Below are positions 8,913 through 29,229 of a stretch of DNA of 64,000 bases, piece by piece. The first letter of the stretch is position 1. Each line of letters begins with the position of its first letter. Location of the stretch: positions 34,944-98,943 of the forward strand of contig DASUGK010000115.1 of assembly GCA_036274075.1 (NCBI GenBank), written 5' to 3'. The notes below the pieces were generated by a model that did no database searches, was not told where the DNA came from, and worked only from the letters and a program-made list of their open reading frames with translations. A program made the position numbers and the translations under genes. The DNA comes from Steroidobacteraceae bacterium. Its GTDB lineage: Bacteria > Pseudomonadota > Gammaproteobacteria > Steroidobacterales > Steroidobacteraceae.

Positions 8913-9635
8913 TCAGCCGGTGAGTGCCACCTGCCCCATGCCGCCGGGAATGGCGCTTTCCAACGGCGCGGCCTGGCGCCGCTCGGCGCGCTGCACGGCC
9001 GCGTCCACCATGGTCGCGAACAGCACCGCGGTGTCGTCGAGGCTCTGCGTCGCCAGCCCGAGATCCCGCGGCCGGCGCACGATCTGCTGGCAGCAGCTGG
9101 AAACCTGGTTGTCGCGCACGCTGTCGACCACGGATCCTTCCGCGAGCGCGCGCAATGCCTTGTCGGTGACTCCGCCCCGCAACGAAGCCTGGTGCCACAA
9201 CGGGTAGAGCACGCGCGGCATGCGCTCGAAGAACCACAGGTAGCCCACGAGTCCCACCGCGGCACGTTCGACCAGCTGGTAGTGGGCGTACGCGGCCAGC
9301 GCGATGGTCTGTGGCAGCGGCGTGAGTGACACGCTGTCGAGCGAATTCAGCCCGAGCGAGCGCAGGTCGTCGAGAAACGAACGACCCTGGTGGAAGGCCA
9401 GCGCGGGAACGGACAGCAGCTCCTGCCAGGCGCTCCAGTCTTCGGCCGGAACGACGTCGGCGGCGATCTCGCGCAGCCGCGAGTGCACGTTGATGACGTA
9501 GTTGAGCTCGAGGAGAAGTTGCCGATGTGTCGCCGCGCCGAGCGCGTTGCCGCGAAACCACTCCATCGTCCCGGCCAGCGCCGAGGACCGCGTGAGAACG
9601 TCGAACTCGAGCGAGAAAACGTCGGCGCTGTTCAT
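8913..9635 (-). CDS. hypothetical protein, probably all-alpha and cytoplasmic
   Basis: 240-aa ORF with typical GC3-rich codon usage. I recognise no motif with confidence. It is divergent from the first CHAT gene. Confidence 0.5.
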   Translation of the reverse strand: MNSADVFSLEFDVLTRSSALAGTMEWFRGNALGAATHRQLLLELNYVINVHSRLREIAADVVPAEDWSAWQELLSVPALAFHQGRSFLDDLRSLGLNSLDSVSLTPLPQTIALAAYAHYQLVERAAVGLVGYLWFFERMPRVLYPLWHQASLRGGVTDKALRALAEGSVVDSVRDNQVSSCCQQIVRRPRDLGLATQSLDDTAVLFATMVDAAVQRAERRQAAPLESAIPGGMGQVALTG

Positions 9636-9681
9636 CCCTTGGCCTGTGGTCGTGGCGCGGCAAACTGGTCTTGCCTATGTA

Positions 9682-9708
9682 GTGTCACGAGTTCAGGGTT
9701 TCTCTCAC
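9682..9708 (+). promoter_or_regulatory. bipartite motif GTGTCAC-N12-TCTCTCAC, copy A (upstream of CHAT paralog 1, in the divergent control region)
   Basis: Read directly from the sequence. Same half-sites and same 12-nt spacing as copies B and C. Confidence 0.55.
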
Positions 9709-9745
9709 TTGGCGCTGTCATAACCACAAACTATTTTCAATCAAA

Positions 9746-9766
9746 GACTTACTACAAACCCTGCCT
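9746..9766 (+). promoter_or_regulatory. conserved 21-nt block GACTTACTACAAACCCTGCCT, copy 1
   Basis: Identical 21-mer to 13303-13323. It lies 64 nt downstream of the start of bipartite motif copy A. Confidence 0.5.
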
Positions 9767-9840
9767 CCATTCTCCAATTCCGTTGCAGCGTGACGCAGGT
9801 GCCTGTAAACATTGGCGTTGCAACAAGGGGACTCGAGGTC

Positions 9841-12800
9841 ATGCGCGCCTGCGCCGGCGCCGAAAACGCCAATAAAAAACGCCTGCGCGCATTGTTCCAG
9901 ACACTGTGTACCGCCTGGGTGCTGTGCCTTTGTGCCTGCACCGGAAGCTTCGAGACCGAACCACTCGTCGAATTCTCCACCGAGGTGGTGGTCGGCGGCG
10001 CGCAGCCGCATTCCATCGCCCGCCAGCTGGACGCGGGTACATGGCTGCTCGAGGTCCGTGAACGCGATGTCGACCTGCGCGTGAAGGTGGAGGCCGGCGG
10101 GGCGCGCACCGAACTCGCCGATGCCTTCCTGCGCCACGGCGTGCACCGCATGGTAGTTAGCCTGCCGGAACGGTCGCGGTTCGAAGTGACGCTGGTCAGC
10201 ACCGACCAGCGCGAGTGGAAGGGCGCCGCCGCGGTACGCATCCTGCGCTGGCCCGCGAGCGAGCCGGATGCGGAGCCCGACCACCGCCTGCTCGGATTCC
10301 GCGCACTGGGAGAAGGCAGCGCAGTCGCCGCGCAGGACAACGCCGGGGCGTGGCGCTCGGCGCTGGGTCCGCTGCGCGAGGCCGAGCGGCAGTTCCAGGC
10401 GGCCGGTGACATCCAGTCGCTGGCGGAGGCGGAATACCAGCGCGCCTGGATCGAGCTGGGACTGCTGCACGACCACGGCGCGAGCCGCCGGACCGCGGCG
10501 TCGGCCCTGGCCCATTTCCGCCACAGCGGCGACGCGGTGGGCGCGCATCGGGCAGGAGTCCTGCTGGGCCAGGCGGAATTCGGCGTGGCCGCGAACATGG
10601 GACCGCGAGTGCGGCGCACCGAACAACTTGCGCTGCTCAACACGGCGGCGCGGCGCATGACCCAGGCGCTGGTGTTCTTCGAAAGGCGGGACCTGCAGTC
10701 CGATGTCCTGGCCGCGATGGGCTGGTCGCGCACCCGCGAGAAGCTGCTGGGACGTTGCGATGAGAACGTCACGGTCCACGAAAACATCCGCCAGCGCGCG
10801 CGGGCGCGCGGCGATCGGTACTTCGAGGCGGTCGCCGCGATGGACCTCGGCGACATCGCGCAGCGGCGCGGTGATCTGGTGCAGGCCGCTGCGCTGTACG
10901 AGGGTGCGCTGCCGTCGATCGATCGCGACCGCAACCCGGAGTTGTACGCGAGGTTGATTTCCCGGCTCGGGACCGCGCTACTGGCGCGCGGTGAATTCGA
11001 CCGGGCGCAGGCGCTCCACTCGGAAGCCCTGGGCGTGTTCTCTGCGCGCGGTGACGACAGCGCGATGGCGCGCGAACTCGTCGCGCTGGCGTCGCTGCGG
11101 TTGAGTACCGGGAGCGTGGAGCGCGCCCTGCACATCGTCCAGTCTGCGCTGCCGGTGTACGAGAGCACACGCGACCTGGAAGGCAAGGTCTCGGCCCTGC
11201 AGGTCGCCGGCAACGCCGCCGCCGCACTCGGGCGACACGAGCAGGCCCTCGGGTACCTGCGCACGGCCGAGCGCCTCGATCGCCACGGTTCCAGCGTCGA
11301 TCGCACACGCGTGCTCATCGCCCGTGAAATGCGCCTGCTCGGCAACCTGGGCGGCGCGGAAGAAATGCTCGCCAAGGCGCTGCAGACGCGGAACGAGGCG
11401 GTGCACGCAGACACGCTGGCGGAACGCGCGCAATTGCGCATGCACCAGCTGCGGCAACGCGAAGCCCTCGCCGACCTGCGCGCCGCCGACGCGCGTTACT
11501 CGCAGCTCAAGCTCGACTTCAGGCGCATCGAGTCGAGCTCGGCGCTGTCGCTGGCGCTGCTGGATGCGGGTGACATCCCGGGCGCGGGCAAGGCTGCCGA
11601 CATCGCGGTGGCCTTGGAACGCCGCATCCGCGCCAGGGCCTCCAACCCCGAGATGCGGGCGCGTTTCCTGTCGGCCAGTTACTCGCCCTACGAAGCGCGT
11701 ATCGAGGTCGACCTCGCCGGTGCGACATCCGATCGCGACGCGGTGTGGCGCGCCTTTCGCACGGCCGAGGCCGTGCGCGCGCGATCGCTCGCCGACCGGC
11801 TGGCGCAGACCTCGCGCGGCCCCACGCGACGCGACGCCGAGATCGACGGGCTGCGACAGACCATGGCGTCGCTGCAACTGGATCTCGACAGGATGTCGGA
11901 GGACGGCGTCGACGCGCGGGCACTGATGGAGACGCGGCGGCGCATCGACGCCACGCAGGCGCGCCTCGAGGCACGCCTGCTGCGCCAGGATGGCGTGCAG
12001 GCATCCATCCAGACCGGCATTCCCGAATCGCGTGCCTCGGCGCAGTCGCTGCTGCCCGATGACGCGGCCGTGCTGGCGTTCTTCGTGGGCGAGCGCCGCT
12101 CGCATGGCTGGCTGCTGACCCATCGCGAGCTGCGGCACGCGGTGCTGCCCGGGCGCGCCGTGCTCAACGAGCTCGTCGCGGCCACCATCTCGCAACAACG
12201 CGCGACGGTGAAATCACCGGCGGTGAACGCCTTCACGCCGATGCTGGATTCACTGCTGCAGGGCGTGGCCGCGAAGCGGCTGCTGATCCTTCCCGACGGC
12301 CCGCTGCACGGCATGCCGTTCGCGACCATCCCGCTGCCGCGCGGAACGTCGCGGGAGCTGCTGATCGACCGGTTCGTGATCGCCGGCGCGCCTTCGCTCG
12401 CCGTGGCACTGCGTCCGGCGCCGCGGCACCGCGATGACGGGACGCTGGTGGCGGTGATCTCCGACCCGGTCTACACCTCGGACGACCGGCGGCTGACCGT
12501 CGCGACCGGAGACGCGGCATTGTTCCGCGGTGACGACGGCGAGTCGCACCGCCTGGCGCGCCTGCCCTACTCGGCCATCGAGGCGCGTTCGGTGATGCGC
12601 GTCTTCGACGGCGCGCGCATCATCGCGCTCAACGGCTTCGACGCCACCGCGCGCCGCGTGGTCGCGCTGCCGTCGAAGGATCTCGACGTGCTGCATTTCG
12701 CCACGCACGCCGTGATCCGCGAGGACGCACCGGAGCAGTCCGCGCTGTTCCTCAGTGAATACGCCGCCGACGGTTCACCGGTGGCCGCGGACCGCCTCAC

Positions 12801-13125
12801 CGCCGACGACATCACGCGCAGCGGCCTGCGTGCCGACATCGTGGTGCTCTCCGGCTGCGCCACCGGCGATGGCCGCGAGCTGCGCGGCGAAGGCGTGCTC
12901 GGGCTCACCTACGGCTTCCTCGCCAATGGTTCCAATACCGTCGTGGCATCGTTGTGGCCGGTGGAGGACGCGCTGACCGCGCGGTTCATGGAAGAGTTCT
13001 ACACGGCGTACCGTGCGACGGGACACGCCGCCGAGGCGTTGCGCGCCGCGCAACTGCGCGGCCGCAACAAGACCGGGCCCACCGTCTGGTCGAGTTTCGT
13101 GGTGCGGTCCAACAGCCTGCCCTGA
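9841..13125 (+). CDS. TPR-repeat CHAT-domain (caspase-like peptidase) protein, probable lipoprotein, paralog 1
   Basis: ATG 9841 has AAGGGGA 9 nt upstream; the GTG at 9790 is an alternative start. Signal/lipobox ...WVLCLCAC. Long helical TPR-like middle region. C-terminal CHAT motifs LHFATHAVIR (His codon 12706-12708) and VVLSGCATGDG (Cys codon 12856-12858). Confidence 0.85.
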   Translation: MRACAGAENANKKRLRALFQTLCTAWVLCLCACTGSFETEPLVEFSTEVVVGGAQPHSIARQLDAGTWLLEVRERDVDLRVKVEAGGARTELADAFLRHGVHRMVVSLPERSRFEVTLVSTDQREWKGAAAVRILRWPASEPDAEPDHRLLGFRALGEGSAVAAQDNAGAWRSALGPLREAERQFQAAGDIQSLAEAEYQRAWIELGLLHDHGASRRTAASALAHFRHSGDAVGAHRAGVLLGQAEFGVAANMGPRVRRTEQLALLNTAARRMTQALVFFERRDLQSDVLAAMGWSRTREKLLGRCDENVTVHENIRQRARARGDRYFEAVAAMDLGDIAQRRGDLVQAAALYEGALPSIDRDRNPELYARLISRLGTALLARGEFDRAQALHSEALGVFSARGDDSAMARELVALASLRLSTGSVERALHIVQSALPVYESTRDLEGKVSALQVAGNAAAALGRHEQALGYLRTAERLDRHGSSVDRTRVLIAREMRLLGNLGGAEEMLAKALQTRNEAVHADTLAERAQLRMHQLRQREALADLRAADARYSQLKLDFRRIESSSALSLALLDAGDIPGAGKAADIAVALERRIRARASNPEMRARFLSASYSPYEARIEVDLAGATSDRDAVWRAFRTAEAVRARSLADRLAQTSRGPTRRDAEIDGLRQTMASLQLDLDRMSEDGVDARALMETRRRIDATQARLEARLLRQDGVQASIQTGIPESRASAQSLLPDDAAVLAFFVGERRSHGWLLTHRELRHAVLPGRAVLNELVAATISQQRATVKSPAVNAFTPMLDSLLQGVAAKRLLILPDGPLHGMPFATIPLPRGTSRELLIDRFVIAGAPSLAVALRPAPRHRDDGTLVAVISDPVYTSDDRRLTVATGDAALFRGDDGESHRLARLPYSAIEARSVMRVFDGARIIALNGFDATARRVVALPSKDLDVLHFATHAVIREDAPEQSALFLSEYAADGSPVAADRLTADDITRSGLRADIVVLSGCATGDGRELRGEGVLGLTYGFLANGSNTVVASLWPVEDALTARFMEEFYTAYRATGHAAEALRAAQLRGRNKTGPTVWSSFVVRSNSLP

Positions 13126-13240
13126 ACGCGCGCGGCCGGCAGGCCCCCTAACTACCTGGAACCGGCGGGCCCGGGCGGGCGCTCGCGGCCGGGAGCCGCG
13201 TCGCCCCGGCCGCCCAAAACCCGGCGGCCATTCGTTATAA

Positions 13241-13267
13241 GTGTCACGACTTCGCGATTTCTCCCAC
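13241..13267 (+). promoter_or_regulatory. bipartite motif GTGTCAC-N12-TCTCCCAC, copy B (upstream of CHAT paralog 2)
   Basis: Read directly from the sequence. Same half-sites and same 12-nt spacing as copies A and C. Confidence 0.55.
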
Positions 13268-13302
13268 CTGCAACCGCAGGCCGCGAAGATTTTTTCTCGC
13301 CG

Positions 13303-13323
13303 GACTTACTACAAACCCTGCCT
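13303..13323 (+). promoter_or_regulatory. conserved 21-nt block GACTTACTACAAACCCTGCCT, copy 2
   Basis: Identical 21-mer to 9746-9766. It lies 62 nt downstream of the start of bipartite motif copy B. Confidence 0.5.
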
Positions 13324-13398
13324 ACGAAATCGACGCTCAATTGCGGCACAATGCCTGTGCCAGTCAACACTTACCCCCGCCGCGGGGGGTCCGCTTGC

Positions 13399-16300
13399 AT
13401 GTCCTTCCGCGATCGAGTCGCCATTGATTTCGCCCTGAATCCGCGGACCGGCGTCGTCACGGTTTTCTGCGCCGCCTGCGCGTTCATGATGGCCGCGTGC
13501 ACCGGTGGATCCGGTCGGGAGCTTACCGAAGTCCTGTCCAGCGATCTGCCGGTGGGCCCCGACGCGCCCGCGAATGCCGCACCGCAGCTTCCGCCGGGCG
13601 TGTACCTGGTCGAAGTGCGCGAACGGGACGTCGACCTGCGCGTGGTCATCGACGCGGCCGGCAGCCACGCGGAGCTCGAGGACGGCGTGCAGCGCCACGG
13701 CCTGCACGCCGACGTAGTTAGACTGCGACAGCCCGCGGCACTGCGCATCGAGGCACGCAGTGCCGACTACGGCGGCAAGCGCGGCAGCGCGCAGGTGCGC
13801 GTGTCGCGCTGGAAATACCCGGTGGACACGGCGCCGGACGAGCTGGAGAACGGCTTCACGGCCTTCGGCGCCGGCGGCCGCGAGACGGCGCGCGGTGAAC
13901 CCGCCGGCTGGGAGCGCGCCGCGCAGCAGCTGCGCCGCGCCAGCGCCCTGTTCGCGGAGGCCGCGGACGAGCCGGCGCGCGCGCAGGCCGAGTATTCGCT
14001 GGGAAGCCTGGAGTACCTGCTGCGCATGCAGTGGCAGGCGGCGATCCGCGCCGCCGACACCGCCGCCGACGGCTACGAATCGCTCGACGACGAGACCGGC
14101 CGGCACCGCGCCGGCGTGCTGCGGGCTTCCGCCGAGATCGAAATCGCCCGCGGAATGAGCGCGAGCTCTCAAACCGCCGAGCGCAACGCGCTGTTCGAGT
14201 CGATCGATCGGCGGCTGCGCGATGCGGCCGCGTACTTCGGCAAGGATGGCGCCGCGATCGACGAGGCCTACAGCATTAACATGCGCGGCGTCGGCTTCTA
14301 CAGCGCCGGCAACGACGCACGCGCCGCGGAGTTCTTCGCGCAGGCAGGCGAACTCGCGCGCCGCAACCAGGATTCGACGCTGGAGGTGAAGACGCTCAGC
14401 AACCTGGCCTGGATCCATCAGCGCCGCGGCGAGATTGCGCGCGCGGCGAGCGAATACCAGGCGTTGATGCCGCTGCTGGACCGTGATCGCGACGCCGACA
14501 TGTACGCAACCACGATCACCAACTACGGCCAGTGCCTGATCGCGCTCGGCGAGTTCGACCGCGCGCTGACGCTGCACACGCAGGCCCTCGAAGTATTCGC
14601 CACCCGCGGAGCCGACGCGGACCGCGGCAAGCAGCTCAATGCACTCGGCGGGCTCTACATCCGCGTCGGCGAGCTCGAACGCGCGCTGTCGACACTGCGC
14701 ACGGCCATTGAGGTGCACGGCAAGGTGGGCGCCGGCTGGGCGCGCGCCGCGGCCCTGCGCATGGCGGGCAACGTCGCAGGCGCACTCGGGGATCCGCGCG
14801 GGGCACTCGTCTACCTGCGCGAATCGATGGAGCAAGACGCTCAGCCCGAGGCCGTGGCGAGGACCCGGGTATTGATCGCAGCACAGCTGCGCGCGCTCGG
14901 CGACCTGCGCGGCGCGGAGCGCGAACTGGTCGAAGCACAGCGGGATGGCAGTGAGCTGACGCGCGCCAATGCCACGGCGGAGCGTGCCCGGCTGCGGCGT
15001 GCGCAGCGCGATTTCTCCGCGGCGCTGGCCGATGCGCGTGCCGCGGACGCATCGTACGAATCACTCGGGCTGGACTTCGACCGCATCGAGACCCACACGG
15101 TGATGTCGCAGTCCCTGATCGCCCTCGGCAACGCGCGCGAGGCACTGGCGGCAGCCAACGCGGCGATTGCCATCGAGCAGCGCATTCGCGTCGGATCCGC
15201 CAACCCGGAGTGGCGCGCGCGCTTCCTTGCTGAACGTTATTCGCCCTACGAGGCGCGTATAGCCGCCGAGCTCGCGGCCGGCGGCGACGATGCAGCCTGG
15301 CAGGCTTTTCGCACCACCGAGACCGTGCGCGCACGTTCGCTCGCCGAGCAGCTCGCGGCGCGGATGGATCTCCGGTCGAGCCGGGCGGTGACCGAAGTGG
15401 ACCCGGCCGGCAACGCGTTGCGCGCGGAACTCACCGCACAGCAGCTGCGACTCGAAAGCCGGATGGATCGCGGCGGCGCCGACCCCGCAGAACTCAGCGA
15501 ACTGCGGCGCTCCATCGAGGAGACGCGCGCGCGCATCGTCGCGAACGAATTGCGGCGGCGGGATATTTCCGGAGTGTCGGCAGCCGCCGCCAGGATTTCC
15601 GGCCAGCTGCGCGACGTGCAGGCCGCGATCCCGGCCGACACCGCCGTGCTGGCCTATTTCGTCGGCGACGAGAACAGCCACGCATGGCTGCTGACGCGCG
15701 ACTCGCTGCAGCACGCCACGCTGGCGGGACGTACCGGATTGCAACGCACGGTCGATGCCTTCGTCGCCGCGAGCCGCAGCGGCGCCGTGACGCCCGCCTC
15801 GCGCGCGGCCGGCCGCAACCTGCTCGGATCGCTGCTCGACCACGTCACGGCGAAACGCCTGCTGGTCATCGCCGATGGTCCGCTGTACGCCGTGCCGTTC
15901 GCCGCGCTGCAGCCCGCGGCGAGTTCGCCGGGTGTGTTGGTCGAGCGCTTCGTGATTTCCTATGCACCGTCGCTGGCGCTGGCCATGCACGCGCCGTCGG
16001 CGGCGGGAACCGCGACACGCGTCGCCGTGATCTCGGATCCGGTGTACGCGCAGGACGACAGCCGGCTGCGGCTCGCGTTGGCGGACGACGCCAGTGCCTA
16101 TCGCAGCGGCGAACAGCCGCGCGACAGGCTGACGCGCCTGCAGTATTCCGGCCTCGAAGGGCGCACCGTCGCGCGCGCGTTCGCCGGCCGCGACACCGTC
16201 GAGATCAGCGGCTTCGACGCCACGCCGGAACGCGTGCTGGCGCTGCGTTCCCAGCCCCTGTCGGTGCTGCACTTCGCCACGCACGCGCGGATCAGGCGCG

Positions 16301-16692
16301 ATTCGCCCGAGCAGTCGGCGCTCTATCTCAGCGAGTACAGCGCCAGCGGCCGGTCGATCGCCGAGTCGCGGCTCACCGCGGATGAAATCTCGCGCACCGG
16401 CCTGCGCGCGGACCTCGTGGTGCTGTCGGCCTGCGCCACCGGCGACGGCGGCGCGGTGCGCGGCGAGGGTGTGCTCGGACTCACCTATGCCTTCCTCGCG
16501 AACGGCTCGCGTTCGGTCGTGGCCTCGTTGTGGCCCATCCAGGACGCGTCCACCGCGCGTTTCATGAAGGAGTTCTACGACGCGTATCGCAAGACCGGCC
16601 GCGCCGCCGACGCGTTACGCACCGCCCAGCTGCACGAACGCGGTGGCGTCGCATGGACGAGTTTCGTCGTCCGCGCCAACGAATTTCCCTGA
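13399..16692 (+). CDS. TPR-repeat CHAT-domain (caspase-like peptidase) protein, probable lipoprotein, paralog 2
   Basis: ATG 13399 has a G-run 9 nt upstream; the ATG at 13351 is an alternative start. Signal/lipobox ...FCAACAFMMAAC. Collinear with paralog 1 (EVRERDVDLRV, YSPYEARI, AFRT.E.VRARSLA). CHAT dyad LHFATHARIR (His 16282-16284) and VVLSACATGDG (Cys 16432-16434). Confidence 0.85.
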   Translation: MSFRDRVAIDFALNPRTGVVTVFCAACAFMMAACTGGSGRELTEVLSSDLPVGPDAPANAAPQLPPGVYLVEVRERDVDLRVVIDAAGSHAELEDGVQRHGLHADVVRLRQPAALRIEARSADYGGKRGSAQVRVSRWKYPVDTAPDELENGFTAFGAGGRETARGEPAGWERAAQQLRRASALFAEAADEPARAQAEYSLGSLEYLLRMQWQAAIRAADTAADGYESLDDETGRHRAGVLRASAEIEIARGMSASSQTAERNALFESIDRRLRDAAAYFGKDGAAIDEAYSINMRGVGFYSAGNDARAAEFFAQAGELARRNQDSTLEVKTLSNLAWIHQRRGEIARAASEYQALMPLLDRDRDADMYATTITNYGQCLIALGEFDRALTLHTQALEVFATRGADADRGKQLNALGGLYIRVGELERALSTLRTAIEVHGKVGAGWARAAALRMAGNVAGALGDPRGALVYLRESMEQDAQPEAVARTRVLIAAQLRALGDLRGAERELVEAQRDGSELTRANATAERARLRRAQRDFSAALADARAADASYESLGLDFDRIETHTVMSQSLIALGNAREALAAANAAIAIEQRIRVGSANPEWRARFLAERYSPYEARIAAELAAGGDDAAWQAFRTTETVRARSLAEQLAARMDLRSSRAVTEVDPAGNALRAELTAQQLRLESRMDRGGADPAELSELRRSIEETRARIVANELRRRDISGVSAAAARISGQLRDVQAAIPADTAVLAYFVGDENSHAWLLTRDSLQHATLAGRTGLQRTVDAFVAASRSGAVTPASRAAGRNLLGSLLDHVTAKRLLVIADGPLYAVPFAALQPAASSPGVLVERFVISYAPSLALAMHAPSAAGTATRVAVISDPVYAQDDSRLRLALADDASAYRSGEQPRDRLTRLQYSGLEGRTVARAFAGRDTVEISGFDATPERVLALRSQPLSVLHFATHARIRRDSPEQSALYLSEYSASGRSIAESRLTADEISRTGLRADLVVLSACATGDGGAVRGEGVLGLTYAFLANGSRSVVASLWPIQDASTARFMKEFYDAYRKTGRAADALRTAQLHERGGVAWTSFVVRANEFP

Positions 16693-16711
16693 TTTGCCCA
16701 AGGAGACCCCG

Positions 16712-17254
16712 ATGATCAAGATCCCATTTCGATTTCGCAGTCTTGCCCGCCTGTGCCTCGCAGCGACGGCGTTCACAAGCGCGTCCGCGCTCGCGGGCGA
16801 TCCGGACCCAGCCGTCGCGCCGTGGCTCGGCAAGGAGATCACCATCACGTCGTCGACGCTGGGTGATCATGTGCCGCCAGGCGGCAAGCTCACCTTCGTC
16901 TACGACGGTGAAGACGACGTGGTGCGCGTTTGCACGCGTTCGGTCCCGACCAAGCGCGCGGTGTGGAAGATGGATCTCGCCGTGCCCTGCGCCGTGGCGC
17001 TGAACGTGGTGCGTGGCGAGCGTTATTGCTCCGACGACGAGGTGAAGACCGGTGACGCCGAAGTGCTGTCCACGTGCCACCGCCTGCGCAGCCACGACGT
17101 CGCGCTGCACGCGGCCGCCGCCAAGGACGCCGTGGAACTGCACGACGTGATCGTGTTCCTGCTGCAGCCCGGCGCGGACAAGAAGCATTCGATCTCGATC
17201 CTGCTGGATTCTCCGTCGCGCGTGACGCACGCCGGGCACATCATCGGCGAGTAG
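16712..17254 (+). CDS. small secreted hypothetical protein (4 Cys)
   Basis: AGGAGA lies 6 nt before ATG 16712. Signal peptide MIKIPFRFRSLARLCLAATAFTSASALA. No recognisable family. The gene starts 19 nt after the CHAT paralog 2 stop. Confidence 0.6.
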   Translation: MIKIPFRFRSLARLCLAATAFTSASALAGDPDPAVAPWLGKEITITSSTLGDHVPPGGKLTFVYDGEDDVVRVCTRSVPTKRAVWKMDLAVPCAVALNVVRGERYCSDDEVKTGDAEVLSTCHRLRSHDVALHAAAAKDAVELHDVIVFLLQPGADKKHSISILLDSPSRVTHAGHIIGE

Positions 17255-17256
17255 CC

Positions 17257-18810
17257 TTGACGAGCCGTTCTCTTGCGCGGGGCTTCTTCACCATCCTCCT
17301 GCCTTTCGCGGCCTCGGCCGCACTGGCGGGGGGCCTCGCGCAGGCGAACGAACCCGGAATCTGCGGCCGCAACCAGGCCGGGAGCCCGAACGGACTGCGG
17401 GCGCCGGCGGCGGTAACGGCCTACCTCGATTCACTGTCCGGCAGCACACGATTCGATTTGCGCGACGCCTGCGCCTCCTGGGCAGGGACGAATTCAGACC
17501 GCCGGCGTCGCGCAAACGATGGCGCGCGCGGTGACCCCGTCCCGGCACGCTTCATCGTGTTTCCCGCACCGGACGTGGAAATGCAGGCGCTGGCCTCGCA
17601 CCTGAAGCGGGATAACCACGTCTACAGCGTGGAAACCGCCAGCCGGTTCGTGGTCGCATCGTTCGACCGGCAGGTTTCGACGCGCCGGCTGCGACGTGTC
17701 CTCGACGATCCCCTGGTCGATTACGCCGAGCCCGACTGCGACGGGCCGGATTTCCTCACCACCTCCATCGAACTGCTCGACTACGGGCGCGACGGCTCGA
17801 GTTGCTGGCAGCGTGCCGCGCGTACCACGTTTCCCAACGATCCCTGCATCGACGAGCTGTGGGGACACACGAAGATCGGCTGGAATTCCGACATTGCGCG
17901 GCGTTCGCTGCCGCGCATCGTCGCCGTGCTGGATTCAGGCATCGATGCTGCGCACGAGGACCTCGCGAGCAACGTGTTGATCGACATTCCCGGCGAGCCG
18001 CGCGGCTCGCAGGGCAGCCGCCTGAATGCGCAGTGCGCCACCAGCGGCCTGTGTTATCCGCACGGCACCGAGATGGCCGGCACCATCGGCGGCCGCATGG
18101 ACAATGGCATTGGTGTCGCCGGCGTCGCACCGAACAGCCGGCTGCTGCCCATCGTCATCAGCCGGGTCGACCACGGACTGCTGGCGCGCCTGTCCACCAT
18201 CGCCGAGGGCATCGATGCTGCGGTGCGGGGCGGCGCCGACGTGATCAACATCAGCGCCAAGTGGCCCGTGGACAGCCGCGCGATTTCCGCCGCCATCTAC
18301 GCGGCAGTGGGCGGGAATTCCTCCACCCGCCGGCTGGTGGTCACCGGCTATGCCACCAGCCTGCAGCGCGACGAGACGGTGCGCGAGTACTTCCCCTCCC
18401 GCTACCGTTGCCTGCCCGGCGTGGTCGCGGCCGTGCCCACGGACATGCGCGGGCGCGATCTGTTCAATCCCGAGGGCCGCCCAAGTGCGACGGACGGCAG
18501 GATTCAGGCACCCGGCGTGGACATCGTGGTGACAACGACCGAGAATTCCGCGCAAGGTTACGCGCTGTCCGAGGCAGCCGGCGCATCGAGCGCCGCGGCC
18601 TACGTTTCGGGCGCGGTAGCCCTGGTCTGGGGCAGCCCGCCGCTCAACAAATGCGACGCCCAGCAGATAAAACAGTTGCTGTTCTGCAGGAGCAAGTCCA
18701 GCAACTCGTCGCGGTACCCATGGATCAATGTCGATTTTCTCGGTGAACTCGGTTCGGTCGGCGCGGGCGCGGACTGCCACGCGGCCATGGAAGCGCTCGG
18801 CTGCACCTAA
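17257..18810 (+). CDS. S8 (subtilisin) family serine peptidase, divergent
   Basis: TTG start 2 nt after the preceding stop gives the signal-like LTSRSLARGFFTILLPFAASAALAGG. Triad motifs are VAVLDSGID (Asp 17932-17934), HGTEMAG (His 18061-18063) and GASSAAAYVSG (Ser 18586-18588). The usual AAGN oxyanion motif appears replaced by TGYA, but that alignment was done by eye. Confidence 0.75.
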   Translation: MTSRSLARGFFTILLPFAASAALAGGLAQANEPGICGRNQAGSPNGLRAPAAVTAYLDSLSGSTRFDLRDACASWAGTNSDRRRRANDGARGDPVPARFIVFPAPDVEMQALASHLKRDNHVYSVETASRFVVASFDRQVSTRRLRRVLDDPLVDYAEPDCDGPDFLTTSIELLDYGRDGSSCWQRAARTTFPNDPCIDELWGHTKIGWNSDIARRSLPRIVAVLDSGIDAAHEDLASNVLIDIPGEPRGSQGSRLNAQCATSGLCYPHGTEMAGTIGGRMDNGIGVAGVAPNSRLLPIVISRVDHGLLARLSTIAEGIDAAVRGGADVINISAKWPVDSRAISAAIYAAVGGNSSTRRLVVTGYATSLQRDETVREYFPSRYRCLPGVVAAVPTDMRGRDLFNPEGRPSATDGRIQAPGVDIVVTTTENSAQGYALSEAAGASSAAAYVSGAVALVWGSPPLNKCDAQQIKQLLFCRSKSSNSSRYPWINVDFLGELGSVGAGADCHAAMEALGCT

Positions 18811-18834
18811 CTACCGGCGCGCGCGGGGCACCCC

Positions 18835-19503
18835 GTGAGCGCGCTTTCCCTCGACGAAATCGAGAAAGTCGTGGCGGCGGCGCTCGACGGCGACCGCCAG
18901 GCCGAGTCGCGCATGCTGGCGGCGCTGCGGCCGGGCGTGCTCGCGGTGCTGCGTTTCGGGGCATTTCACCGCTGGATCGACGCCGAGGACCTGACGCAGG
19001 AAACCCTGCAGGTGGTCGTGGAACGCGTGCGCGCGCGGACCATCGACGATCCGCGCAAGGTGTTCGCCTTCGCCGCGGCGACCGCGCGCAACATGGCGCT
19101 GAACGCCGCGCGCAAGATGCTGCGCCAGCAGACCGTGGTCGACTCCGAGCTGGTCGACGAGCTGGCGCAGAACATGGAAACCGAGCCCGGCGACATGTCG
19201 GAGGCGGACGACCGCCACCTGGCCCAGGCCGTCATGGCGCTGCTGGACGAACTACCCACGCAGCGGGACCGCGAGGTGCTGGTACGGTTCTATCTAGACG
19301 GCACCGACAAGCAGCAGCTGTGCCGCGAACTCGGACTTTCCCCTAAGCATTTCGACCGTGTGCTGATGCGGGCCCGTACGCGGCTGCGCAACATCGTCGA
19401 ACGGCGCGCACCGCACCTGGCCCTGGTGCCGCGAATCTCGGCTGTTTTGCTCCCATTGGCGATTTCTTTCACGTTTTGGGTGAGAGATTTTGGCTCCTGG
19501 TGA
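18835..19503 (+). CDS. ECF-type RNA polymerase sigma-70 family factor with a ~33-aa hydrophobic C-terminal tail
   Basis: GTG start. Region 2 (DAEDLTQETLQVVVERV) and region 4 (LPTQRDREVLVRFYLDGTDKQQLCRELGLSPKHFDRVLMRARTRLRN) are recognisable. The tail ISAVLLPLAISFTFWV is encoded by atypically AT-rich codons. Confidence 0.85.
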   Translation: MSALSLDEIEKVVAAALDGDRQAESRMLAALRPGVLAVLRFGAFHRWIDAEDLTQETLQVVVERVRARTIDDPRKVFAFAAATARNMALNAARKMLRQQTVVDSELVDELAQNMETEPGDMSEADDRHLAQAVMALLDELPTQRDREVLVRFYLDGTDKQQLCRELGLSPKHFDRVLMRARTRLRNIVERRAPHLALVPRISAVLLPLAISFTFWVRDFGSW

Positions 19504-19506
19504 CAC
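19480..19506 (-). promoter_or_regulatory. bipartite motif GTGTCAC-N12-TCTCTCAC, copy C (inverted; spans the sigma stop codon and abuts the anti-sigma ATG)
   Basis: The plus strand reads GTGAGAGA-N12-GTGACAC, the exact reverse complement of the copy A half-sites. Confidence 0.5.
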
Positions 19507-20271
19507 ATGTCACTCATGAAGTCTCTTGATCGCCAATCGCTGGAAGAACAGGCGCGCCTGGTATCGCGTTATGTCGCGGGCGACCTGTCGCGTTCGGAAC
19601 GGGCCGAGTTCGAGGCCTGGCTGGTGGCATCCCCCGAACTGGCTGCCGAGGTCGAGATGGAACGCCGCCTGCGGCGTGGCATCGCGAGCGCGGCACGGCG
19701 CGGATGGCTGAAGCGCGGCACCGAGCCGGTGCCGGAGGCCCGCGAACAGCGCTGGCGCATGGCCATCGCCGCGAGCGTGGTCGTGTCTCTGCTGCTGATG
19801 GGCGTGACTTTCGTGTTGCCCAGTGGCTCATCCGACGAATCCCGGACAACCGCCAGCACCACGCCGGTGAAGCCATCGCTGCCGCGCATCGTGCGTCTCG
19901 GCGCGGTCCGTAGCCTGGAGACGACCCCCGACATCCTGGTGTCGCGCCTCACGCCGCCGAGCGAACTCACCATCGAGCCCGAAGTCGTTGTGCTCACCTG
20001 CCCCGATGGCAGGCTCGAGCTGGAATGCGCCGGTGGCGCCGCGCCGCAGACTCCGCAGTATCCCGAATACGAGATGGAACTCGTGAGCCGCCAGGTGTCG
20101 CACGTGGCATGGCGCTCCCCGCGACAGTTGCCGACGTCCGGTTCCGTGCTGTCGTTCGTGCTGAGCGAGCCCGAGCAACTGGAGGCCGGTGACTACGACG
20201 TCATCGTGCGGGGCCACTCCCCCGAGCACGAAGAAGTCGTGGCGCGCTTCTGGCTGCGCGTCACCGAGTAG
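19507..20271 (+). CDS. putative anti-sigma factor (non-zinc, single-pass membrane)
   Basis: Begins 3 nt after the sigma stop. N-terminal helix pattern YVAGDLSRSERAEFEAWLVASPELAAEV. One TM segment, WRMAIAASVVVSLLLMGVTFVL. About 140-aa exported C-terminal domain containing 2 Cys. Confidence 0.65.
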   Translation: MSLMKSLDRQSLEEQARLVSRYVAGDLSRSERAEFEAWLVASPELAAEVEMERRLRRGIASAARRGWLKRGTEPVPEAREQRWRMAIAASVVVSLLLMGVTFVLPSGSSDESRTTASTTPVKPSLPRIVRLGAVRSLETTPDILVSRLTPPSELTIEPEVVVLTCPDGRLELECAGGAAPQTPQYPEYEMELVSRQVSHVAWRSPRQLPTSGSVLSFVLSEPEQLEAGDYDVIVRGHSPEHEEVVARFWLRVTE

Positions 20272-20305: not shown

Positions 20306-21043
20306 TCAGCTCAGGTACTTCTTGATCCGCGCGTGCAGCGGCGAGTGCCGCGGGAAGTGCGCGCGCAGGTATTCCATCTGGTCGGCCAGCACGCGCCGTC
20401 CCTTCAGGAAGATGTACTCCGCGTAGGTCGGCGTGAACGGTACCGCGATGAGCTGCATCTTCGCCTGCTCGGGCGTGCGCGACGCCTTGAGGTTGTTGCA
20501 GCGGCGGCAGGCCGCGACCACGTTGGTCCACACGTCGCGGCCACCCTGGCTGAACGGCCGGATGTGATCGCGCGACAACTCGCGCACCGGGAAGCGCTGC
20601 GCGCAGTACATGCAGAAGTGCGCGTCGCGGCGGAACAGCGTCTGGTTGTTCAGCGGCGGCACGTAATCGTGGCGCGTGTTCCCGGGATTGCCGGTGTGCC
20701 CGATGGTGGCGACGATGGAATTCACTTCGAGCACGGTACGCAGGCCCGAGCGCGCACTCACGCCGCCGTAGAGCTTGAACAGCGGGCTGCCGCAGGTGTA
20801 CGCCACCTGTTCCTGGTGATACAGCCGCGCCGCTTCCTTGTAGTCGATCCACTCCAGCGGCATGCCGGACACGTCCGTTCGGAGCACGAGCTGGGAGAGC
20901 GCGCGGCTCGAGTAGCCCGCGATGAGGCGCAGATCGGAGAGGTCTCCACGATCCGCCTTTTCCAGATCGATGCCCAGCATTTGGCATGTAAGATAAGCCA
21001 GTCCTGTGCGAGAATTCAACGCCGCAAGACATTCATTTAACAC
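20306..21043 (-). CDS. HNH endonuclease family protein
   Basis: C-terminal HNH core CMYCAQRF...LSRDHIRPFSQGGRDVWTNVVAACRRCNNLK. The start is uncertain: GTG at 21043 or ATG at 20980. Confidence 0.75.
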   Translation of the reverse strand: MLNECLAALNSRTGLAYLTCQMLGIDLEKADRGDLSDLRLIAGYSSRALSQLVLRTDVSGMPLEWIDYKEAARLYHQEQVAYTCGSPLFKLYGGVSARSGLRTVLEVNSIVATIGHTGNPGNTRHDYVPPLNNQTLFRRDAHFCMYCAQRFPVRELSRDHIRPFSQGGRDVWTNVVAACRRCNNLKASRTPEQAKMQLIAVPFTPTYAEYIFLKGRRVLADQMEYLRAHFPRHSPLHARIKKYLS

Positions 21044-27771: not shown

Positions 27772-27977
27772 TTGTCGGGCTCGTCGTTCTCATCGTTCCG
27801 GGGCGGCGGCGCCTTGGGCTGCGGCTTGCGCGTGCCGGCGATCCTTTCGAAATCACCATTCGCGAGGAAATCGGAGAAATCTTCGCCCTGCGATTCATCG
27901 TTGACCTCGTCGATGCCACCGAGGAACTCCAGCAGGTCTTCCTCGGGCTCATCTTTCTTGTCCTGCGGATCGCTCAC
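27768..27977 (-). CDS. small acidic hypothetical protein
   Basis: GTG at 27977 overlaps the upstream stop as GTGA, and its own stop overlaps the downstream ATG as ATGA. Asp/Glu-rich, 69 aa. The ORF-track start at 28001 is the alternative. Confidence 0.45.
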   Translation of the reverse strand: MSDPQDKKDEPEEDLLEFLGGIDEVNDESQGEDFSDFLANGDFERIAGTRKPQPKAPPPRNDENDEPDK

Positions 27978-28336
27978 GATTCCACTTCGCCCGCGGCCCA
28001 TTCATAGAACTCGAGGTCTTCGCCCTCGGCCACGATCTCCGCGTCGGCGTCGCTCAGGAATTCCAGGTCCTCGTTCAGCGCGGCGACGGGCGCGGTCGCG
28101 GTCGGCCGCGTGCCGCCGGTCCACGTCATCACGGCGAGCACGGCCACGGCCGCCGCGGCGCCGGCCGGCGCGAAGAACCACCAGCGTGACCGCGCCGGGC
28201 GCTGCAATTGTTCGAGCGCCGCGTGGCGCGCCTGCGTCAGCTTCGACAAGGTGCGGCCGTCGAGGCGCGAGGCGCTCTCGTCGAGCACTTCGCGCGTGCG
28301 TTTCTCGAAGCCGCTGTCCTGTGTTTCCTGGTTCAT
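27974..28336 (-). CDS. DUF3619-like membrane protein (putative anti-sigma partner)
   Basis: 120 aa with one TM (WWFFAPAGAAAAVAVLAVM). Starts 9 nt downstream of the ECF sigma stop. This position is typical of beta/gammaproteobacterial sigma-DUF3619-DUF3106 operons. Confidence 0.6.
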   Translation of the reverse strand: MNQETQDSGFEKRTREVLDESASRLDGRTLSKLTQARHAALEQLQRPARSRWWFFAPAGAAAAVAVLAVMTWTGGTRPTATAPVAALNEDLEFLSDADAEIVAEGEDLEFYEWAAGEVES

Positions 28337-28345
28337 GTGCGGACC

Positions 28346-28882
28346 TTAGATCACTTCGCCCAACCGCGCGCGCAACGTCTCGAGCGCGCGGAAATAATGC
28401 GTCTTCACGCTGCCCTCTGAGCAGCCCATGGCGCTCGCCGTCTCGCTGACGTCGAGCCCCTCGAAATTCCGGAGCAGGAAGGCCTGCTTCTGGCGCGCCG
28501 GCAGCTCGGCCACGGCGGTTTCGAGCACGCCGATGGCTTCGTCCAGCTCCAGCCGCCGCGCCGGCGTCGGTTCATGGCCGGGCGCCTGCGCGATCGGGTC
28601 GTATTCCTCGTCGTCCTCGGCATCGCGTGACGGCAACCAGGCCATGATGCGGCCGCGTACCGTGCGCCGCCGCTGGAAGTCGCGAATGCAGTTGGCGAGG
28701 ATGCGGTAGAACAGCGGCCGCCACTCCTCGCTGCTGCGCGAGGCATAGGACTGCACCAGCTTCATCATGGAGTCCTGTACCGCGTCGAGCGCATCGTCGT
28801 CATTGCGCAGGCTCAGCTGCGCAATCTTGAAGGCGCGCTTCTCGACACCGGACAGAAACTGTTCGAGCGCGCGGCTACTCAT
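28346..28882 (-). CDS. ECF-type RNA polymerase sigma factor
   Basis: ATG 28882 is preceded by AGGAGAGG. Region 2 DDALDAVQDSMMKLV and region 4 LPARQKQAFLLRNFEGLDVSETASAMGCSEGSVKTHYFRA. Confidence 0.85.
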   Translation of the reverse strand: MSSRALEQFLSGVEKRAFKIAQLSLRNDDDALDAVQDSMMKLVQSYASRSSEEWRPLFYRILANCIRDFQRRRTVRGRIMAWLPSRDAEDDEEYDPIAQAPGHEPTPARRLELDEAIGVLETAVAELPARQKQAFLLRNFEGLDVSETASAMGCSEGSVKTHYFRALETLRARLGEVI

Positions 28883-29229
28883 CCTCTCCTGGTCCCGACT
28901 TCGCTCGGCCCCGAAATCAGGCGCATGTTCGGGCGTGTTATAAACGCCGGCGAGCGTAACAAACGCGGTCATGAGCGGTGTAACGCGCTGCACGGCGATG
29001 CGTTGACCGCGTCGCTGCCGCACTGCGTTTCCGTGAATCAGGAACTTACGAACACTCTCGCAGGCTGCCTGTCACGTGTCCGTCATGTGACAAAAGGCCG
29101 CGGACGTCCAATCCCATAACTGGTTGTTTCGACTGGAAAGCCGCATATGTGCTCACGATTCGACCAGAGAAACGAGAAACTGCAAAAACACCGCATTTTT
29201 GTCGGCTGCGTCCGACTCCATCCACAGAC

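Follow-up and report, generated by a model that had tools for sequence, protein, structure and literature searches.

In the canonical forms of anti-sigma proteolysis, DegS/RseA/RseP-sigmaE and PrsW/RsiW-sigmaW, a dedicated envelope protease makes the first cut. A further arrangement is that of the DdvA-DdvS system of Myxococcus xanthus, in which the transmembrane anti-sigma factor DdvA carries a periplasmic part of ~900 residues that is a tetratricopeptide repeat (TPR)-CHAT protein with an intact His-Cys dyad; this periplasmic TPR-CHAT was reported in 2018, its structure was solved in 2024, and DdvS and DdvA share their operon with an unknown protein and a second peptidase, of the C25 type (PMC6061681, PMC11506125). 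Self-cleavage of DdvA in trans has been proposed as the site-1 step before RseP, with the juxtamembrane linker as the proposed cleavage target, and the protein has been proposed to sense phage or foreign protein (PMC11506125). The TPR-CHAT protein Csx29 of Craspase cleaves Csx30 and so relieves the extracytoplasmic function (ECF)-like CASP-sigma (PMC10028731), and a SAVED-CHAT to PCaspase cascade of a Haliangium type III-B system includes a sigma factor together with an inhibitor, PCi (bioRxiv 10.1101/2023.06.23.546230). In the full-text literature open without subscription, these three were the only systems found in which CHAT is associated with an ECF sigma factor, an anti-sigma factor or the periplasm. 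The subject here is a six-gene block at positions 9682-20271 of a 64,000-nucleotide (nt) stretch of Steroidobacteraceae DNA (contig DASUGK010000115.1, positions 34,944 to 98,943; the whole stretch is called the window below), which codes for two TPR-CHAT proteins (CHAT1 and CHAT2), a small secreted protein, an S8 subtilase, an ECF sigma factor and a putative single-pass anti-sigma factor. An earlier note on this DNA took the studied CHAT proteins to be all cytoplasmic, a premise outdated by DdvA, whose TPR-CHAT is periplasmic (its protease activity is undemonstrated); the coupling of a periplasmic TPR-CHAT to an ECF sigma factor thus has a precedent, and any novelty does not lie in the general idea.

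In that same literature, no description was found of an unfused TPR-CHAT lipoprotein arrangement or its duplication, of CHAT paired with a subtilase and a small beta protein, or of a wider gammaproteobacterial family of such modules and its core-genome setting. We propose, giving the idea even weight for and against, that the block is an envelope ECF sigma/anti-sigma switch with a free-standing exported TPR-CHAT sensor-protease, a 'split' relative of DdvA-DdvS. The genes all lie on the + strand: CHAT1 (9841-13125, 1094 amino acids [aa]) is followed after 273 nt by its paralog CHAT2 (13399-16692, 1097 aa), and then, across gaps of 19, 2, 24 and 3 nt, by the small secreted protein (16712-17254, 180 aa), the S8 subtilase (17257-18810, 517 aa), the ECF sigma factor (18835-19503, 222 aa) and the putative single-pass anti-sigma factor (19507-20271, 254 aa). 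The six open reading frames (ORFs) of the window, whose G+C content is ~68%, match independent gene calls on identical public metagenome contigs, and in a Pfam scan CHAT, TPR_12, Peptidase_S8 and Sigma70_r2/Sigma70_r4_2/Sigma70_ECF were all matched by the respective proteins. Signal peptides or lipoboxes are present in CHAT1, CHAT2, the small protein and the S8 subtilase, and all four upstream products are therefore predicted to be extracytoplasmic. What the earlier note had read from the letters, namely six + strand genes with their spacing, domains, His/Cys codons and lipoboxes, agrees throughout with the ORFs, translations, Pfam matches and alignments.

The two CHAT proteins, 45% identical to each other end to end, match both TPR_12 and CHAT (PF12770; E values of 1e-53 for CHAT1 and 1.4e-53 for CHAT2, scoring 183.2 and 182.7 bits where the cutoff is 24). 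Full-length homologs of CHAT2, ~1090 aa long and 45-90% identical, number more than 120, and the named ones among them come from Steroidobacteraceae metagenome-assembled genomes (MAGs). The His and Cys codons singled out by the earlier note (12706-12708 and 12856-12858; 16282-16284 and 16432-16434) encode H956/C1006 of CHAT1 and H962/C1012 of CHAT2, lie within the motifs HFATHA ... VVLSxCATG, and leave the dyad intact in both proteins; in a 35-sequence family alignment, in which CHAT1 is one row, H962 and C1012 of CHAT2 are invariant columns. The assignment of the dyad rests on motif position together with the fold match to DdvA and Csx29. Judged from these residues, CHAT1 and CHAT2 are predicted caspase-like proteases with intact catalytic residues. 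The lipobox-like LCAC (CHAT1) and MAAC (CHAT2) are likewise upheld by an invariant Cys column in the same alignment, and 112 of 116 full-length homologs have a PROSITE-like lipobox pattern (a regular expression) where the signal peptide ends, the other four being N-terminally truncated calls. Both proteins are accordingly predicted to be exported lipoproteins of the signal peptidase II type.

An AlphaFold2 model of CHAT2 (predicted local distance difference test score, pLDDT, of 80) consists of a lipoprotein signal, a beta-sandwich (residues 42-138), a helical TPR solenoid of ~580 residues (148-730) and the CHAT domain (745-1097). In a Foldseek search of the PDB with this model, DdvA ranked best (8rw5, E 1.8e-14, and 8rot, E 4.8e-14, over ~1000 aligned columns), followed by human separase and then by the Craspase protease Csx29. 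Sequence searches of the PDB with CHAT, whether with a single sequence, a full-length profile or a profile of the CHAT domain only, returned TPR proteins and no solved CHAT protein, so that the link of CHAT2 to DdvA, separase and Csx29 is visible by fold search only. By its fold match and conserved export signal, CHAT2 has an extracytoplasmic TPR-CHAT architecture of the separase/craspase-like kind. Two observations on CHAT paralogs may be added here. CHAT2 orthologs share a cytoplasmic n-region, MSVRDRVAIY..., 5' of the signal-peptide core (window 13399-13445), and it is conserved at the DNA level as well (ATGTCCGTGCGCGAT), which is unusual in signal peptides and may reflect translational control. 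In locus L009, an extra 330-aa ORF (9012-10004) lies between the first upstream regulatory module, described below, and CHAT1; it is a truncated third paralog with the N-terminal beta-sandwich and the first TPRs, 39% identical to CHAT2 residues 22-274.

The sigma gene lies 2.1 kb downstream of CHAT2 in the same gene string, as in DdvA-type cognate pairing. Its product matches Sigma70_r2, Sigma70_r4_2 and Sigma70_ECF in Pfam and passes the NCBIfam ECF superfamily model TIGR02937 at 68.9 bits, the cutoff being 42.9; TIGR02989, the NCBIfam subfamily nearest to it, stays under its own cutoff (62 versus 124.6 bits). The group ECF220, described as 'Proteobacteria, C-terminal extension, TM proteins at +1/-1' (PMC7826278), is for this sigma factor a lead only. 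The protein is unusually well conserved, at 78-83% identity in loci whose CHAT proteins are at 45-60%, and ends in a conserved hydrophobic tail of ~30 aa (residues ~193-222, window 19411-19503; APHLALxPRIxAxLLPLAxSFTFWVRxF). Similar tails occur in the distant relatives P0363, P0364, P0369-P0371, P0377 and P0378, and the tail may tether the protein to the membrane or act as a regulatory extension. The anti-sigma factor has a weak match to DUF4880 as its sole Pfam result, and its N-terminal helix matches the NCBIfam model 'antisigma' (NF052375) at 6e-8, under the curated cutoff; its RYVAGDLS..ERAEFEAWL also aligns weakly (E 0.75) to AYVLGALS..DRREFEAHL of RslA, with the zinc ligands replaced. 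A hydrophobic transmembrane segment, read from the sequence at residues ~84-105, is followed by an S/T/P-rich linker that shows little conservation, and then by an exodomain of ~120 aa, which is conserved and contains 2 Cys. The conserved start of the protein is probably the ATG at 19516 (MKSLD...) rather than 19507. In locus L007 (15477-16916), a related metagenome contig, the sigma stop codon TGA reads TTA, which yields an in-frame sigma/anti-sigma fusion in a 479-aa ORF; it could be a genuine one-chain sigma/anti-sigma protein or a sequencing error. In L009, a BACON/GCE gene is inserted 3' of the anti-sigma gene.

Evidence that ties these proteins together comes from beyond the clade. Within it, the order CHAT-CHAT-small protein-S8-sigma-anti-sigma recurs in all 12 covering loci of Steroidobacteraceae type (L007-L012, L016, L019, L022, L023 and partial contigs), with conserved housekeeping flanks (a 5'-3' exonuclease and a 240-aa gene upstream, HNH and pntAB downstream, and further syntenic genes for dihydrodipicolinate synthase [DHDPS] and PriA). 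As the flanks are conserved too, in-clade order alone cannot separate function from synteny. An initial search for sigma homologues returned only relatives of at least 81% identity, with no out-of-clade context; out-of-clade relatives were found by an exhaustive search of representatives, and their loci were then drawn from genomes and metagenomes. These sigma relatives are 31-52% identical and have different flanks, and all six with usable flanks lie beside a homologous anti-sigma gene and an exported TPR-CHAT gene. The layout is TPR-CHAT, small lipoprotein, S8, sigma, anti-sigma in an uncultured gammaproteobacterium (L024); TPR-CHAT, a 217-aa protein, sigma, anti-sigma in a member of the Lysobacteraceae (L026); and sigma, anti-sigma, a haem-peroxidase-like protein, a small ORF and a TPR-CHAT lipoprotein in both the cultured Fluctibacter halophilus JC2043 (L025) and a metagenome contig (L028). 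On two other metagenome contigs, sigma and anti-sigma are followed by a CadC-like regulator and TPR-CHAT (L027), or the TPR-CHAT gene is divergent from sigma and anti-sigma (L029). Four further sigma relatives, on short contigs or more distant, showed no TPR-CHAT neighbour. The gene-neighbourhood check called for by the earlier note thus finds the in-clade order repeated and the sigma/anti-sigma/TPR-CHAT linkage holding far outside the syntenic clade, and from this recurrence the conserved core can be taken as sigma, anti-sigma and exported TPR-CHAT, with the S8 subtilase and the small protein accessory to one branch. In L025 (11387-13205) and L028 (5250-7105), a 444-aa animal-haem-peroxidase-like protein and a 171-178-aa ORF with no obvious signal peptide take the place of the S8/small-protein pair.

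A second line of evidence is a non-coding regulatory module of ~135 nt that stands 5' of each CHAT gene on the + strand, at 9682-9813 (copy 1) and 13241-13371 (copy 2), each copy ending 27 nt before the ATG. Its blocks are, in order, GTGTCACGAsTTC-N4-TTTCTCTCAC, CTTACTACAAACCCTGCCT, (A/G)TTGC(G/A)GC and GTGCCTGTAAACATT. They occur twice only in the 64-kb window, and in related loci, within +/-10 kb, the module is found only 5' of the two CHAT genes. In the 12 in-clade loci that cover it (L007-L012, L016, L018, L019, L021-L023), the blocks are near-invariant at both positions, next to CHAT proteins that are ~45-85% identical, and by this comparison the module is the most conserved DNA in the locus. 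In L021 (3851-4520), a Steroidobacteraceae MAG, CHAT1 has been lost and both modules stand in tandem, ~500 nt apart, before a single CHAT2-like gene. A structured RNA was considered and rejected, as the module has no match in Rfam, an RNAalifold energy of -0.55 kcal/mol and no covariation; most likely, the module functions as DNA, as a promoter/operator element. Read by eye, the stretch of it that is most like a promoter, TTGCGG-N17-TAAACA, resembles a sigma-70 site. Between the module and the upstream regions of the out-of-clade operons, no convincing shared motif was seen by eye; all that the compared regions offer is TTGxxx-N16-17-TAxxxx pairs of sigma-70-like appearance, before which an AATTG-type motif recurs in loose form (CAATTGC in window copy 2 and L028, CAATTGA in L026, AAATTGC in L025).

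The duplicated, near-invariant module fits co-regulation or autoregulation. The earlier note had the genes in a single transcription unit, which is not borne out: a terminator-like GC hairpin (13208-13229, + strand; GGCCGCC-loop-GGCGGCC with a T-rich tail) lies 3' of CHAT1, and both it and module copy 2 fall in the gap between CHAT1 and CHAT2. The hairpin was located by consensus scan only, and the regional count of such sites is not above chance. Because these two features separate the CHAT genes, the block probably comprises two units under common regulation, one with CHAT1 by itself and one that runs from CHAT2 to anti-sigma. A divergent gene for a 240-aa protein with a weak match to Haem_oxygenase_2 (8913-9635, - strand) borders the intergenic region that holds module copy 1; the whole clade has this gene in synteny, and the out-of-clade loci lack it.

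The remaining two products of the block belong to the accessory layer. The S8 subtilase matches Peptidase_S8 (PF00082) at 3e-20, with 73 bits against a cutoff of 21.8, and has a Sec signal peptide; the catalytic triad D226/H269/S444 and 12 Cys are invariant in its family alignment. The N-terminal ~200 aa, where Pfam gives no match, appear propeptide-like by eye, and the oxyanion-hole Asn is apparently replaced (VTGYATS), also in a by-eye reading. The 180-aa protein has, as predicted, a Sec signal peptide and four Cys, which are invariant in the family. Its AlphaFold2 model, a confident one (pLDDT 81), is an eight-stranded beta protein that finds nothing in the PDB better than E 0.4, the matches being vaguely lipocalin- or streptavidin-like eight-stranded barrels. 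It has no match in Pfam, NCBIfam or PADLOC, and a hidden Markov model (HMM) of the family has none among out-of-clade small ORFs; the family appears, from these searches, to be specific to the Steroidobacteraceae-type clade.

Set beside DdvA, the block offers the same elements in a different assembly. Both have a TPR-CHAT protein that is placed in the periplasm, keeps its His-Cys dyad and goes with an ECF sigma/anti-sigma pair, a flexible juxtamembrane linker in the anti-sigma factor, an unknown protein and a second peptidase, and the proposed logic of a CHAT site-1 cut followed by RseP. In contrast to DdvA, however, the CHAT protein here is a separate lipoprotein without the anti-sigma domain (ASD), has an extra N-terminal beta-sandwich and is duplicated; the anti-sigma factor is a separate small protein of ~250 aa without zinc ligands; the second peptidase is S8 rather than C25; and the host belongs to the Gammaproteobacteria, with no CBASS (cyclic oligonucleotide-based antiphage signalling system) or CRISPR regulon nearby. 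Craspase shares with the block a TPR-CHAT protease and an ECF-type sigma factor; control there is by inhibitor cleavage, and autoregulation at the locus promoter has been reported. Yet Craspase is cytoplasmic, RNA-guided and Cas7-11-dependent, its Csx30 and Csx31 are unrelated to the anti-sigma factor here, and no Cas7-11 (gRAMP), CRISPR array or Csx30/Csx31 is among the called neighbours within +/-10 kb. In the SAVED-CHAT cascade, too, a sigma factor is encoded together with proteases of two kinds and a small putative inhibitor, and the notion that one protease activates another is common to both. That cascade, however, runs in the cytoplasm in response to cyclic oligoadenylate, it has a C14 caspase and not S8 as second protease, and its proteins are not homologous to the small protein. 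With the DegS/RseA/RseP-sigmaE and PrsW/RsiW-sigmaW systems the block has in common a single-pass anti-sigma factor, here a predicted one, with cytoplasmic sigma-binding and extracytoplasmic domains; the site-1 candidates here, however, are operon-encoded caspase-fold Cys proteases and/or a subtilase, whereas there the protease is a PDZ serine protease encoded elsewhere.

The switch that we propose would work as follows. At rest, sigma would be kept at the inner membrane by the small single-pass anti-sigma factor. Through their beta-sandwich and TPR scaffold, CHAT1 and CHAT2, possibly as a heteromer by analogy with the DdvA dimer, would read a cue from the periplasm or envelope, and this would switch on the His-Cys dyad. 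The CHAT protease, acting in trans, would then clip the juxtamembrane linker or exodomain of the anti-sigma factor in a site-1 cut, and housekeeping RseP-type and cytoplasmic proteases would complete its degradation. Freed sigma could drive both upstream modules and so raise expression of CHAT1 and of CHAT2-small protein-S8-sigma-anti-sigma in a positive feedback. The S8 subtilase and the small beta protein would be accessory, most likely a second tier, for instance for processing a zymogen or as an inhibitor/adaptor pair. A regulated-proteolysis model is reasonable because DdvA, the closest solved structure, is an anti-sigma factor with proposed self-cleavage, and since TPR-CHAT and anti-sigma are fused in one lineage and encoded by neighbouring genes in another, a direct functional link can be argued. 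In favour of a split counterpart of DdvA we also count the catalytic His and Cys, invariant in both paralogs, and the conserved Cys of the lipobox; the variable S/T/P-rich linker, which resembles DdvA's proposed cleavage target; the small protein and S8 subtilase, which parallel the unknown protein and C25 peptidase of the DdvS/DdvA operon; the precedents of Csx29/Csx30 and SAVED-CHAT/PCaspase, in which caspase-like proteases control sigma regulators; the upstream modules, which occur only before CHAT genes and are kept in tandem in L021; and L024, which repeats the order CHAT-small lipoprotein-S8-sigma-anti-sigma. Going further, it is enticing to speculate, though we think it rather unlikely as a whole, that exported TPR-CHAT lipoproteins are an unrecognised class of trans-acting site-1 sensor-proteases for a gammaproteobacterial family of ECF anti-sigma factors, the Steroidobacteraceae form being a two-tier subtilase/caspase-like cascade gated by a small beta-barrel inhibitor/adaptor. 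If true, this would be an envelope-located analogue of caspase cascades.

Several points weigh against the proposed switch. Proteolysis by the CHAT domain of DdvA is itself undemonstrated, and its dyad mutants had no phenotype under the tested conditions (PMC11506125). No chain of DdvS is among the PDB sequence matches of the sigma factor, which has no detectable kinship to DdvS beyond the ECF level, and the two systems are therefore analogous, not orthologous. By eye, the upstream module contains no convincing ECF-type -35/-10 (AAC...CGT). A 68%-identical sigma factor in L020 has no CHAT neighbour and lies in an unrelated context, and the accessory genes differ by lineage, with S8 in one, the haem-peroxidase-like gene in another and none in L026. 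All proteolysis in this scheme, the nature of the cue, control of the module by sigma and what the S8 subtilase and the small protein do are our inferences, as is any contact between the proteins. Finally, genes conserved beside ECF sigma genes may be regulon targets and not regulators (Casas-Pastor et al., PMC7826278).

This last point leads to the main rival reading, in which the sigma/anti-sigma pair senses conventionally, through DegS/RseP-type proteolysis or a conformational change, and CHAT, the S8 subtilase and the small protein are its regulon only, a set of proteolytic tools induced in the periplasm or at the surface to turn over protein, feed, compete or remodel the envelope. We regard it as possible, if on the doubtful side. 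Identical modules precede both CHAT units, as they would for regulon members, the accessory enzymes vary by lineage between S8 and haem peroxidase in a way typical of outputs, and the S8 subtilase is secreted, rich in disulfides and propeptide-like at its N-terminus; regulators and targets are moreover hard to separate in ECF neighbourhoods (PMC7826278). Against this reading stand three facts: TPR-CHAT is the one component always retained besides sigma and anti-sigma, the closest structural relative of CHAT2 is physically fused to an anti-sigma factor, and the TPR-CHAT proteins characterised to date act as narrow-specificity switches and not in bulk degradation (PMC10028731, PMC11506125). It is also conceivable, though improbable in our view, that the block is a defence alarm, in which periplasmic TPR-CHAT detects phage or foreign protein and sigma turns on defence genes elsewhere in the genome. 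Each of the three CHAT-sigma couplings studied so far belongs to a defence context, PADLOC matches the CHAT proteins weakly to BovA (E 6e-5 to 4e-4), and a conserved HNH gene adjoins the block. Against this, PADLOC applied to the six proteins and the HNH neighbour recognised no defence system, with only the weak CHAT/BovA and HNH matches (no Cas matches for the six proteins; weak Cas9 HNH-domain matches for the neighbour), the flanks are clade-syntenic housekeeping genes (5'-3' exonuclease, pntAB, DHDPS, PriA), and the upstream module precedes the two CHAT genes only within +/-10 kb. That unrelated genes lie together by chance or mere synteny, as the equally conserved in-clade housekeeping flanks might suggest, is very hard to credit: the last five genes are 2-24 nt apart, the upstream modules are shared, L009 keeps the block intact despite insertions on both sides, and the six out-of-clade loci, in which sigma, anti-sigma and TPR-CHAT are associated between unrelated flanks, effectively exclude it.

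If the block is indeed a switch with a free-standing TPR-CHAT sensor-protease, it bears on a question that is open for DdvA, namely whether an ECF sigma response is in fact set off by a caspase-like protease of the periplasm; there the trigger is unknown and self-cleavage unobserved. The natural split places protease and substrate in separate genes, which makes the DdvA-type question directly testable, and a related module is present in the cultured strain F. halophilus JC2043. The loci also reveal a wider, uncharacterised module family in Gammaproteobacteria, and they carry the recurring pairing of CHAT or caspase-like proteins with sigma regulators, so far seen only in phage-defence islands, over to envelope signalling encoded in the core genome of Gammaproteobacteria that are abundant in soil. 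Uncharacterised parts that come with the block are the small beta protein, the exodomain of the anti-sigma factor and the hydrophobic tail of sigma.

The flanks of the block are housekeeping and syntenic across the clade, and the block is therefore vertically inherited core genome and not a mobile island. Directly downstream lies the gene for the 224-aa HNH endonuclease (20306-20980, - strand), which is 91-97% identical across the clade, above any protein of the block; it gives weak PtuB/Cas9-HNH profile matches and has no partner ATPase. About 8 kb downstream, beside priA, is a second, unrelated ECF sigma cluster (~27974-28972, - strand, coordinates inferred from the L001 gene calls), in which a Sigma70_ECF gene is followed by a DUF3619-like gene and two small ORFs.

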